Shown here in pieces: positions 56,158-59,167 of a DNA stretch of 64,000 nt. Both the position numbers and the translations under genes were made by a program. Source of the stretch: an uncultured SAR86 cluster bacterium. GTDB lineage: Bacteria > Pseudomonadota > Gammaproteobacteria > Magnimaribacterales > D2472. The notes below the pieces were generated by a model. It was given only the letters and a program-made list of their open reading frames with translations, was not told the origin of the DNA and ran no database searches. Numbering within the stretch: position 1 is the first letter of the stretch; each line of letters opens with the position of its first letter. The stretch is taken from assembly GCA_902599315.1 (NCBI GenBank), contig CACKEY010000002.1:151647-215646 (forward strand). The letters run 5' to 3'.

Positions 56158-56358
56158 TTAGTCTAATTCATCTATCCAAGCCATTTGAATAGCTTCTAAA
56201 ATTTTCTCATTTGAACTATTCGGGTCACCAATGAAGTGATCCAGGTTGCATATTTTTTTATGCAAATCAGGAAAACTTATCCACTGAGGATCAATTTCAG
56301 GAAAGTTTTCACACAATTCTATAGCAATTTCTTGTATGTCTGTCCAATTAATTTCCAT
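56158..56358 (-). CDS. iscX: Fe-S assembly protein IscX
   Basis: WTDIQEIAIEL...SNEKILEAIQMAW. Confidence 0.95.
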   Translation of the reverse strand: MEINWTDIQEIAIELCENFPEIDPQWISFPDLHKKICNLDHFIGDPNSSNEKILEAIQMAWIDELD

Positions 56359-56696
56359 TAGTGGTCTTCGGAAACCAGGTTAATGGTGTATTTTGGAATT
56401 CTAATGACTGTCATCTCATCAACAGGATATGCCTGACAGCCTAATCTAGAATTTTGCTCAAGCCCCCATGCTTTATCAAGCTGATCCTCTTCCTCATCAG
56501 AAGCATCCTCTAAATTATTAAAACCGTCTTCAATAATGATATGGCATGTTGTACATGCACAAGACATTTCACACGCATGCTCGATCTTAATCTTACTTCT
56601 TAGGCATGCCTCTAAAATACTTTCGCCAGGAAGGGCTTCTATAATAGCACCCTCAGGACAAAATTCTTCGTGAGGTAAAATTTTTATTTTTTTTTT
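56358..56696 (-). CDS. fdx: ISC [2Fe-2S] ferredoxin with no ATG/GTG/TTG start (possible IscA fusion by slippage, or ATA start at 56687)
   Basis: Frame reads KKKIKILPHEEFCPEGAIIEALPGESILEACLRSKIKIEHACEMSCACTTCH...SRLGCQ. The track's Met at 56567 lies inside the cluster motif. Confidence 0.9.
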   Translation of the reverse strand, partial: KKKIKILPHEEFCPEGAIIEALPGESILEACLRSKIKIEHACEMSCACTTCHIIIEDGFNNLEDASDEEEDQLDKAWGLEQNSRLGCQAYPVDEMTVIRIPKYTINLVSEDH

Positions 56697-57076
56697 ACTT
56701 GGGAAGTAACTTCAGAACTAAAGTTTTTATCACTGTCCACAGTGAAACTCTCTCCACATCCACAAACTGAAGTTGCATTTGGATTATGGAATTTAATACC
56801 TTTGTTAAAGCCATCTTCTTCATAATCGACTTTACTACCTTTTAGAAATTCAAAGCTTTTTGGATCAATTAAAAATGTACAATCATCGTGCTTGATTACT
56901 GTATCATCGTGAGCATGAGTTTCTTCGTATTCAAAAAAATATTCATATCCTGAACATCCAGCTTTCTTCACACCAATTCTGATGGATTGATTTACTTTTT
57001 CTTTTTTAAGCAATCCAGAAAAGTGTGAAATCGCTACATCGGAAAATTGAAGTTGCTCAGGCTTAAATTTATCCAT
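56684..57076 (-). CDS. iscA: A-type Fe-S carrier IscA with a ~17-aa C-terminal extension
   Basis: AGCSGYEY, NPNATSVCGCGESF. Confidence 0.93.
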   Translation of the reverse strand: MDKFKPEQLQFSDVAISHFSGLLKKEKVNQSIRIGVKKAGCSGYEYFFEYEETHAHDDTVIKHDDCTFLIDPKSFEFLKGSKVDYEEDGFNKGIKFHNPNATSVCGCGESFTVDSDKNFSSEVTSQVKKK

Positions 57077-57082
57077 ATTTAA

Positions 57083-57487
57083 CTACTGCTTTTGCTCAAA
57101 GTCATCTATTGCCTGTCTAATAGAATCTTCTGCTAAAACAGAACAATGAATTTTTATTGGAGGAAGCTCTAATGCCTCAGCAATTTCAACATTCTTTATT
57201 TCTCTAGCTTCCTCAAGAGTTTTACCGATGAGCATATCAACTATTTCACTTGATGATGCAATAGCTGAACCACATCCATATGTTTTAAATTTGACATCTT
57301 TAATAACGTGAGTATTGCCTTTAGATTCGCACTTTATTTGCAACTTCATAACATCACCGCATGCAGGTGCGCCAACCATTCCGGTACCAACATTGGCTTC
57401 TTTAGGATCGAACCTTCCTACATTGAATTTTTCAGGCTCATTAAGTGTTTTTTCGAACTTATCAATTACTTTTCTACTATATGCCAT
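57083..57487 (-). CDS. iscU: Fe-S scaffold IscU
   Basis: GAPACGDVMKLQ, TYGCGSAIASSS, LPPIKIHCS; GGGAGG SD before ATG 57487. Confidence 0.96.
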   Translation of the reverse strand: MAYSRKVIDKFEKTLNEPEKFNVGRFDPKEANVGTGMVGAPACGDVMKLQIKCESKGNTHVIKDVKFKTYGCGSAIASSSEIVDMLIGKTLEEAREIKNVEIAEALELPPIKIHCSVLAEDSIRQAIDDFEQKQ

Positions 57488-57503
57488 AAATACCTCCCAA
57501 TAT

Positions 57504-58730
57504 TTAATGGGTTTGCCATTCAACTGTATCTAGATCAACCCCATCTAAATACATTTCCCACAATGGAGATAACTCTCTAAGCCTATCAACAGCGTGGTTA
57601 ATCAAAGATAATGTATAATCTACATCCTCTTCAGTGGTAAATCTTCCAAAAGAAAAACGAATTGAGCTTGATGCAAGCTCATCTTTTCTTCCAAGCGCTC
57701 TAAGAACATAGGATGGCTCCAAACTTGCGGAGGTGCAAGCCGATCCTGAGGATACAGCAATGTCTTTCAAAGCCATAATTAATGATTCTCCTTCAACATA
57801 TGCAAAGCTAATATTTAATATATTGCTAACTTTATTATTCATATCGCCATTAACATAAATTTCCTCAATCTTGGAAACAGAATCATAAAACTTGTTATGT
57901 AATGACTGTACTTTTTTTATATCCCTATCCATTTCCTCTTTTGCAATCCTAAATGCTTCTCCCATTCCAACAATCTGGTGAGTAGCCAAAGTGCCAGATC
58001 GCATACCTCTTTCATGACCACCACCATGAATTTGAGCTTCAATTCTTACACGTGGCTTCCTTCGAACAAATAATGCTCCCACTCCCTTAGGCCCATATGT
58101 TTTATGAGCTGAAAATGACATTAAATCTACAGGAAGAGTGGTTAAGTCAATTGGTACTTTGCCAGTACTCTGTGCAGCGTCTACGTGAAAGAATATTCCT
58201 TTTTCTCGAGCAATTTTTCCAATGCTTTCCAAATCATTAATTGTGCCTAGTTCATTATTAATATGCATAATTGAAATCAAAATAGTATCTTCTCTTATTG
58301 CATTCAAAATAGCTTCGTCAGTTATAAGACCACCCTCGTTTGGTTCTAAGTAAGTAACTTCAAAACCATCTCTTTCTAATTGTCTGCATGGATCTAAGAC
58401 CGCTTTATGTTCTATCTTTGACGTAATAATATGTTTACCTTTAGATTGATAAAAATTTGCTATTCCTTTTATAGCTAAGTTATCGGCCTCAGTAGCACCA
58501 GAAGTCCAAACTATTTCTCTAGGATCGCAGCCAACTAAATTTGCGACATGAGATCTTGCTTCCTCAACAGATTCCTCAGCCTTCCAACCGAATTTATGCG
58601 AACGTGATGCAGGATTTCCAAAATTACCATCTAAAGTTAAATGATCAGATATTTTTTTTGCAACTCTTGGATCAACAGGTGTCGTAGAAGCATAATCCAT
58701 GTAAATCGGTAGTGTAACTTTTGTGCTCAT
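57504..58730 (-). CDS. iscS: Cysteine desulfurase IscS
   Basis: [26 protein letters not shown]. Confidence 0.98.
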
Positions 58731-59167
58731 GATTGAATTTCCTTAAGAGTTATATGGGGCCTCTCAGGCTTTTCTACAAGATCTATAATTGATATTTCAC
58801 TTAAAAAATTATCAACTACATTATTTAAGTCATCCCACAGCTTGTGCGAGTTACACTTATTACCAAAATGACATGTTGAAGTACCTGAGCAATTGGTTGA
58901 GTCTAGATTTTCTTCAACTGCTTCCATAATTTTTTTGATGGTTATATTTTTGGGGCTTGTGGCATATACATATCCGCCCTTTCTGCCTCTAACACTCTTC
59001 ACAATGCCTGCTATTCTAAGTTTTCTGAATAATTGCTCAAGATATGTCAGATTGATGCCCTGCCTAGCTGAGATATCTTTTAAAGAGACAGGAGAATCAT
59101 AAGCAGATGAATATTCTAGGTCTGCCAAAGCATTAACTGCATAGTGGCTTTTAGTTGTAAAATTCAT
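58727..59167 (-). CDS. iscR: Rrf2-family regulator IscR
   Basis: [16 protein letters not shown]-x5-C-x5-C-x2-H ligands ([16 protein letters not shown]). Confidence 0.92.

Follow-up and report, generated by a model that had tools for sequence, protein, structure and literature searches.

Passages of a review on recoding (PMC5009743) describe that runs of nine A or T residues slip efficiently in bacteria and that Thermus dnaX uses such slippage, that in some (reversed) dnaX genes the zero-frame stop codon of the short product lies right after the slip site, and that the sole tRNA-Lys(UUU) makes E. coli dnaX shift-prone. The same passages report that poly(A) frameshifts in the endosymbionts Buchnera and Blochmannia are corrected in 12–50% of transcripts. 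In tssM1 of Citrobacter rodentium, according to portions of the original report (PMC4256274, Gueguen et al. 2014), an A11 run gives approximately 20% shift and RNAs with 10–15 A residues, both products are needed, and no Shine-Dalgarno-like (SD-like) or structural signals flank the run. Here we analyse a stretch of 64,000 nucleotides (the window) from an uncultured SAR86 cluster bacterium, in which iscA and fdx of the iron-sulfur cluster (ISC) operon are joined by a run of ten A residues (A10). We consider it likely that this run is a recoding site from which two products are made, by slippage of either the RNA polymerase or the ribosome; for recoding by the polymerase (transcriptional slippage) specifically, we put the chances at about even. 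Slippage recoding as a class of mechanism is already known. In a literature search that covered sources other than subscription journals, no publication was found that treats recoding at iscA-fdx or a fusion of the two genes, and the first 300,000 characters of the recoding review do not mention iscA, ferredoxin or iron-sulfur (PMC5009743).

On the minus strand the junction reads ACT TCC CAA GTA AAA AAA AAA TAA AAA TTT TAC CTC ACG. It is composed of the following elements, given by their positions in the window.

56684..57076, minus strand: iscA, encoding an A-type Fe-S carrier; the zero-frame product has 130 amino acids (aa) and ends in TSQVKKK* (from the open reading frame (ORF) list and profile scans)

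56687..56737, minus strand: linker-like IscA tail DSDKNFSSEVTSQVKKK, C-terminal to the CGCGESFTV core

56687..56696, minus strand: proposed slippage site, a run of A10 (T10 when read on the plus strand) that encodes KKK in both frames

56684..56686, minus strand: zero-frame iscA stop codon TAA, which adjoins the run and whose letters fall in ATA-AAA in the fdx frame

56358..56696, minus strand: ISC ferredoxin coding region (KKKIKILPHEEFCPEG...SEDH and stop) in the −1 frame, without a canonical start codon

56565..56567, minus strand: first ATG of the fdx frame, within the Cys motif, at which gene callers begin a 69-aa truncated 'ferredoxin'

The product of the iscA ORF has the C-terminal end CGCGESFTVDSDKNFSSEVTSQVKKK. 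Downstream of the TGA at 56714–56712 the −1 frame is open; it reads SYFPSKKKIKILPHEEFCPEG...TINLVSEDH and stops at 56360–56358. Between this TGA and the ATG at 56567 the ORF list contains zero ATG, GTG or TTG codons in the fdx frame, which leaves fdx without a canonical translation start of its own. Translated from 56696, the frame scores 158 bits against TIGR02007, the NCBIfam profile of ISC ferredoxin (cut-off 132.1), and 48 bits against PF00111. The TIGR02007 match spans profile positions 2–109 of 110, starting from the third K of the run; since it begins at position 2, the initiator Met alone is missing from Fdx. The iscA product has the CGCGESF motif and scores 108.2 bits against TIGR00049 (cut-off 58.8) and 57 bits against PF01521. 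It stays under the equivalog cut-offs (92.5 against 150.6 for IscA; SufA and ErpA are also missed), and 'IscA' is therefore a positional name given by the operon. The original prediction, made from the letters of the window, had described the end of iscA with T10 at 56687–56696, the lack of ATG, GTG and TTG ahead of the Cys motif, the linker-like tail after CGCGESFTV and an ISC ferredoxin in the −1 frame, and our data agree with it in all of these respects. In G000, the genome that holds the window (90% complete, 34.7% G+C), there are seven gene junctions at A/T runs of at least eight residues, and iscA-fdx is alone among them in having no canonical start. Besides fdx no second ISC-type ferredoxin match was found in G000.

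The locus resembles tssM1 of C. rodentium and tssM of Yersinia pseudotuberculosis, as these are presented in parts of the published accounts, in that a poly-A run lies close 5' of a premature stop, with neither SD-like nor structural signals in the vicinity. In tssM a short and a long protein come from one locus by slippage and their ratio matters; we propose the same for iscA-fdx. There are differences as well. In tssM1 the interruption is within one gene, and 28 nt separate the run from the stop. The iscA-fdx junction, by contrast, connects two housekeeping genes that were separate ancestrally; its stop is in contact with the run, and the downstream gene no longer has a start codon of its own. 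Experiments have shown slippage in tssM1, while at iscA-fdx we infer it. With dnaX the junction shares an A-run of lysine codons, for which two products in a fixed ratio are proposed here, and a sole tRNA-Lys(UUU) as in E. coli. Moreover, in both cases relatives show both arrangements, with the long product made in frame or by a shift. The locus differs from dnaX in its gene family, in that neither a stimulatory SD nor a hairpin was found, and in that its downstream part encodes a whole protein, which folds independently and has a gene of its own in other bacteria. Long A runs, small AT-rich genomes and genes that are out of frame and still functional are also features of Buchnera and Blochmannia. 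Their frameshifts, however, are scattered, lineage-specific and found in bottlenecked endosymbionts, whereas ours concern one particular junction, conserved between families of free-living plankton, and the genome with this iscA-fdx otherwise avoids long runs.

An order-wide search of 266 genomes found Fdx in 220, and junction DNA was read for 70 loci, of which 68 are usable (L001–L070 minus L056 and L065). In a tree built from the IscA core and Fdx (68 sequences, 225 columns, FastTree with LG+gamma) 33 of these loci, comprising all four run/tail layout classes, form one clade with a Shimodaira-Hasegawa-like (SH-like) support of 0.997. An A9–A11 run is kept in 29 of the 33 members. The −1 layout, where the IscA stop is 0–2 bases beyond the run and fdx has no start codon, is found in 23 members: 19 have A10 (six loci of genus g1 including the window, two g14 loci and eleven loci of family f4) and four genomes, again of f4, have A9 followed by G. 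Three members carry in-frame IscA-linker-Fdx ORFs, two of them with A11 (L003, L007) and one with CTC followed by A10 (L033, from the one-contig, apparently complete genome G124). The +1 layout is likewise seen in three members, namely L037, which has A9 and whose nearest relatives have A10, and L034 and L035 with A10. The run is lost in four members from f4 (L013, L045, L046, L048), where an ATG-fdx is overlapped by the iscA tail. All other loci (the rest of f1, and f2) have an ordinary ATG-fdx and an IscA that ends in CGCGESFTI* or a near variant with few extra residues.

Tail, run and absent start codon thus go together: in relatives with an ATG-fdx either IscA ends in CGCGESFTI* or the run is gone, and the tail is seen in relatives solely where fdx has no separate, non-overlapping ATG start. 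The layout is confined to a single clade, within which the f4 lineages with an ATG are nested; therefore the tree indicates that the run-fdx layout has a single origin in the history of these genes, followed by a small number of secondary losses. A comparison of orthologous loci had been recommended in the original prediction, with in-frame fusions or a conserved A-run to be looked for, and both exist.

In L034 and L035 an ATG is located just 5' of the kept A10 (ATG CAA AAA AAA AAG ATA) and iscA is in the +1 layout. It is possible that this lineage is an intermediate between recoded and separate expression. The history of the cassette may include transfer. Trees of IscU and Ndk place the g1 genomes in one group, apart from f4, whether or not they have the run, whereas in the IscA+Fdx tree the run-bearing g1 and g14 genomes group with f4, unlike the flanking genes (L001–L030). 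This hints, and is suggestive only, that the iscA-fdx cassette has moved between families. Alternatively, fusion-specific constraints may distort the gene tree.

Both fdx and the run are under selection. In −1 lineages the ratio of nonsynonymous to synonymous substitution rates (dN/dS) of fdx is 0.03–0.10, i.e. purifying selection is strong; of 12 pairs compared, nine gave an estimate of dS, above 1 in each of them, and three gave none. Over the same divergence, the run has eight A columns without any variation in 26 aligned junctions, and the upstream linker varies freely. A change from AAA to AAG in the run is silent in both frames, yet the run stays pure. G000 has 555 A/T runs of length 8, 87 of length 9 and eight of length 10, and none is longer. 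In its ORFs of at least 150 aa pure A9 is found in 10 of 119 Lys-Lys-Lys windows, as compared to 46.7% expected from codon usage. Two other runs within ORFs of G000 are present at full length in 2/15 and 1/27 of their genus orthologues. The alignments thus indicate that the site is conserved beyond coding needs. We considered that A10 might merely be the longest chance run of the genome; this was ruled out, as the two other A10/T10 runs compared are not conserved. Three other A10/T10 runs of G000 lie in frame (FFF or KKK) in long ORFs, at C1:378469-378478, C1:515007-515016 and C6:52951-52960, and two of these three are the ones compared with relatives. If the polymerase slips at A10, truncated products should be expected from those three genes too.

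A pattern scan of metagenomes for at least A8, at most six free bases and then the conserved fdx start returned 65 contigs from many assemblies, 59 of which can be classified; the other six are truncated or contain N. The layouts among the 59 are, as given, 54 in −1, five in frame and one in +1. Specifically, the 54 contigs of the −1 layout comprise 28 with A10+T, 16 with A10+TT and 10 with A9+GC or A9+GT. The same linker can be accompanied by runs of different length: NIDSEKTDSGKSSEV occurs with A9 (L118), A10 (L086, L090) and A11 (L098), and the window's own linker occurs with A10 in L113 and L134 and with A11 in L082. The window's own lineage also includes a genome with A11 (G006, locus L003). 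In the protein collection there is a protein of 239 aa (P0005) identical to the IscA and Fdx of the window read as a fusion. Its cluster has 180 members, and the 15 that are listed show 239-aa forms on 10 contigs and the 69-aa ferredoxin on 106. A11 alleles of the window's lineage are found on approximately one in 10 contigs.

These A11 versions (G006/L003 and L082) and the 239-aa forms raise the question whether the frame is a matter of DNA, either because A10 is a miscalled A11 or because the locus is a phase-variable switch whose A10 cells lack Fdx. We regard this as scarcely probable. A10 is found again and again, in the assemblies of many studies and in contigs from the RNA libraries of three, and the 69-aa call that is typical of A10 outnumbers the 239-aa form by 106 contigs to 10 among the 15 listed members of the 180. 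A phase switch would leave the gene off in most cells, which does not fit the strong purifying selection on the sole ISC ferredoxin found in G000. The original prediction had offered a true in-frame fusion with a homopolymer sequencing error as one of its three readings. As a general explanation it is rejected by the −1 layout in 23 of the 33 clade genomes and 54 of the 59 contigs and by A10 in contigs of three RNA libraries.

The fusion nevertheless exists in nature. Two clusters of the protein collection consist nearly entirely of full-length fusions, of 236 aa (221 members) and 243 aa (109 members), and the in-frame ORFs of 236–243 aa carry PF01521 together with PF00111. In-frame loci that can be read as DNA (L033, L112, L124, L089) still hold A10; slippage there, whether one A is lost from the mRNA or gained, would stop translation directly behind IscA and therefore release free IscA. 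The same pair of domains, PF00111 and PF01521, is present in one polypeptide in family f3, in the reverse order ATG-Fdx-linker-IscA, as a single ORF of 242–245 aa directly after iscU. Unlike the window, these fusions begin with ATG and need no recoding, and their linker has no long run in the two loci examined (L029, L030). The in-frame ORF in G124, the two large clusters and the reverse fusion of f3 indicate that fusions of IscA and Fdx are real proteins. An AlphaFold2 model of the natural fusion (the L033 ORF, from an alignment of 10 sequences) has a mean predicted local distance difference test score (pLDDT) of 54.5 and a predicted template modelling score (pTM) of 0.47, which is too poor for judging contacts between the domains.

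The loci with the reverse fusion in f3 are L024, L026, L029, L030 and L070. Further ferredoxin fusions of the protein collection are P0011, P0103, P0108 and P0114; this group comprises IscA-Fdx of 227 aa with neither linker nor run, and Fer2 combined with IscX (PF04384, 188 aa), with NifU_N/IscU (PF01592, 218 aa) or with an HSP70 domain (356 aa).

The coexistence of A9, A10 and A11 alleles in one lineage could also mean that the −1 state is a tolerated defect: an ancestral in-frame fusion gene would have got a homopolymer frameshift that background slippage rescues, with no benefit from the −1 state. The genomes are small and AT-rich, and passages of the recoding review describe rescue of poly(A) frameshifts by slippage in Buchnera and Blochmannia (PMC5009743). 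We find this reading very unlikely. The bacteria are free-living and very abundant, and efficient selection is expected in them. The −1 state is in the majority in several deep lineages with saturated synonymous sites, and A11 alleles, although they arise repeatedly, are found on approximately one in 10 contigs. In addition, the in-frame loci that are read as DNA keep the run too.

Two kinds of slippage would lead to the same protein. One A added in the mRNA or one −1 slip of the ribosome gives ...SQVKKKIKILPH..., identical to the natural A11 ORFs; the original prediction was right that one extra A makes a seamless IscA-linker-Fdx. The main rival to slippage of the polymerase is a programmed −1 ribosomal frameshift, during which tRNA-Lys(UUU) would slip back on A AAA AAA of an unaltered A10 mRNA while the A site holds, or is close to, the zero-frame stop (or AAU/AGC). 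The heptamer, of the X XXY YYZ type, is in the zero frame at the junction and is carried by all three junction classes, and the zero-frame TAA is 0–2 bases past the run in the window and its −1 relatives. The one tRNA-Lys gene found in G000 has the anticodon UUU, as in the shift-prone dnaX of E. coli, and mnmA is present in the genome. The run is covered without a gap by contigs of three RNA libraries, one from each of three studies; A10 is thus the main form in RNA-library contigs, in line with a ribosomal shift. On the other hand, the consensus fold of 26 junctions from RNAalifold has −0.17 kcal/mol and two pairs, with no conserved stem-loop or pseudoknot, single-sequence folds of the junctions are heterogeneous, and the 26 aligned junctions have no conserved SD-like block or motif upstream. 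The run is kept at 9–11 though seven residues would do, and the coexistence of A9, A11 and in-frame A10 lineages fits a pool of mRNAs of heterogeneous length better. Taken together, a ribosomal shift appears rather unlikely. We favour slippage of the polymerase because the run is held at 9–11 residues even though a heptamer serves the ribosome, because there is neither conserved structure nor upstream motif, because the prevalent layout needs one additional A, which is the commonest product of slippage, and because layouts that need other shifts or none coexist, which is tolerable with mRNA of heterogeneous length.

A different possibility is that there is no recoding and that Fdx is started at a non-canonical AUU or AUA codon, either the Ile of KILPH or the AUA at 56687; ribosomes might re-initiate there after terminating at the iscA stop, and the A-rich leader might aid their binding. 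An ATT or ATA codon for this Ile is present two codons past the run in every lineage, the iscA stop is 1–2 codons upstream, and genes of this operon are tightly coupled elsewhere (fdx/iscX, iscS/iscU). It is important to note that the protein needs Ile at this position anyway and that ATT and ATA make up 86% of Ile codons, so the presence of the codon is uninformative on initiation. Starts of the AUU/AUA type work with approximately 1% efficiency in E. coli. The codon that corresponds to ATA at 56687 is TTA or CTA in f4. Non-AUG initiation also gives no reason for the pure run of 9–11 A residues, the linker tail or the natural fusions, and it is unlikely that the only fdx copy found would lose its ATG and that this loss would be kept across families. 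We therefore hold initiation at such a codon to be quite improbable. Re-initiation at ATA, which was the third reading of the original prediction, is weakened by TTA and CTA in f4, yet its wider form draws on an AUU/AUA Ile codon downstream that is universal. As a general mechanism, coupling through an ATAA overlap was tried and ruled out, since the ATA is not conserved.

Several observations weigh against transcriptional slippage or against recoding as a whole. A10 is the majority form in the RNA-library contigs, bearing in mind that contigs hide minor variants and that such libraries can hold DNA. The sole tRNA-Lys(UUU) and the A AAA AAA beside a stop equally permit a −1 shift of the ribosome, and the universal AUU/AUA Ile codon two codons past the run could serve for independent initiation. 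The ATG lineages nested in f4 (the L013 group and L034/35) mean that separate expression is viable, and the stable in-frame lineages mean that the frameshift is not needed for function. Errors of assembly could account for the A9 and A11 variants. Finally, the metagenome pattern presupposed at least A8, and the frequency of run loss cannot be read from the contig sample. Of the three readings in the original prediction, the one in which transcriptional slippage or a −1 shift makes both IscA and IscA-Fdx is favoured by the comparison of relatives, with run, tail and startless fdx together in one clade and with the natural fusions; the slippage step itself is what we infer from them.

According to the slippage model, standard decoding would stop at the TAA beside the run, yielding free IscA that carries a short tail. 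If one A is added to the mRNA through slippage of RNA polymerase on the T10 template, the frame would continue into fdx and the product would be IscA-linker-Fdx (...TSQVKKKIKILPHEE...). The fraction of slipped transcripts would then set the ratio of IscA to IscA-Fdx, and slippage would be the sole route by which the single ISC ferredoxin of G000 is translated. Fdx tethered to an A-type carrier may deliver electrons or a cluster directly to IscA. If so, a sub-stoichiometric IscA-Fdx chain beside free IscA would put the electron donor on the carrier.

A complex of IscA and Fdx is known from E. coli. In mitochondria ISCA1-ISCA2 reportedly takes electrons from the ferredoxin FDX2, as is said to have been found by Weiler et al. 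in 2020. The likeness between FDX2 with ISCA1-ISCA2 and our locus is that an A-type carrier works with the ISC ferredoxin. Unlike here, where a covalent tether in a sub-stoichiometric fraction is proposed, the mitochondrial proteins are separate and meet transiently. Sections of a paper on cluster assembly describe that [4Fe-4S] is formed on ISCA proteins, which are A-type carriers, by reductive coupling of two [2Fe-2S] clusters (PMC9313013).

If the shift takes place on the ribosome, it might sense the thiolation of U34 in tRNA-Lys(UUU), and the isc operon would in this way tune its own ferredoxin supply. Thiolation by MnmA draws on sulfur from IscS and would compete with IscU; when sulfur goes to Fe-S assembly, under-thiolated tRNA would lead to more frameshifting and more IscA-Fdx. 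In E. coli, as parts of a published study state, frameshifting is inhibited when U34 of tRNA-Lys is modified, and IscU competes with TusA for IscS (PMC3296357). We give this idea very little credence.

The junction is part of a cluster with the minus-strand gene order iscR-iscS-iscU-iscA-fdx-iscX, followed by ndk, rlmN, rodZ, ispG and hisS in the ORF list. The neighbouring isc genes are the following.

58727..59167, minus strand: iscR-like regulator, the first gene of the cluster, from the ORF list and named by position and sequence

57504..58730, minus strand: iscS, cysteine desulfurase, from the ORF list and named by sequence and operon position

57083..57523, minus strand: iscU scaffold, from the ORF list with the listed start TTG; its orthologues were used for the IscU tree

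56158..56358, minus strand: iscX, whose start overlaps the fdx stop; it scores 96.8 bits against TIGR03412 (cut-off 40.4)

The true start of iscU is probably the ATG at MAYSRKV. The fdx gene follows directly after iscA, unlike in the canonical order iscRSUA-hscBA-fdx-iscX, where hscB and hscA lie in between. HscB (TIGR00714) has zero matches in the 90% complete G000, and the best match to HscA (TIGR01991), on contig C4, scores 609 bits, below the cut-off of 708.55, and appears DnaK-like. A genome in the family that holds the window is identical over 1401 nt to the record of Gamma proteobacterium SCGC AAA076-P13, and AAA076-P13 is given as a genus of the SAR86 cluster (PMC9771814).

Public gene calls systematically mis-annotate this ferredoxin by shortening it to 56358–56567. 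The 69-aa form P0121 is found on at least 89 contigs from five sources, and annotation pipelines may score such genomes as being without fdx.

The repeated fusion of Fdx with an A-type carrier, in two orders and with and without the proposed recoding, is, to judge from the sequences, an argument for direct action of the bacterial ISC ferredoxin on IscA. Direct action of Fdx on IscA would fit the mitochondrial model of reductive coupling; hscBA was not found in G000. If the recoding proposed here is true, a core housekeeping pathway of SAR86, which is among the most abundant bacteria of the surface ocean, contains a conserved site of recoding. To our knowledge, such cases have hitherto been mainly described from mobile elements, secretion systems and decaying endosymbionts. 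It would then follow that slippage can be the sole expression route of a core protein domain in free-living cells.

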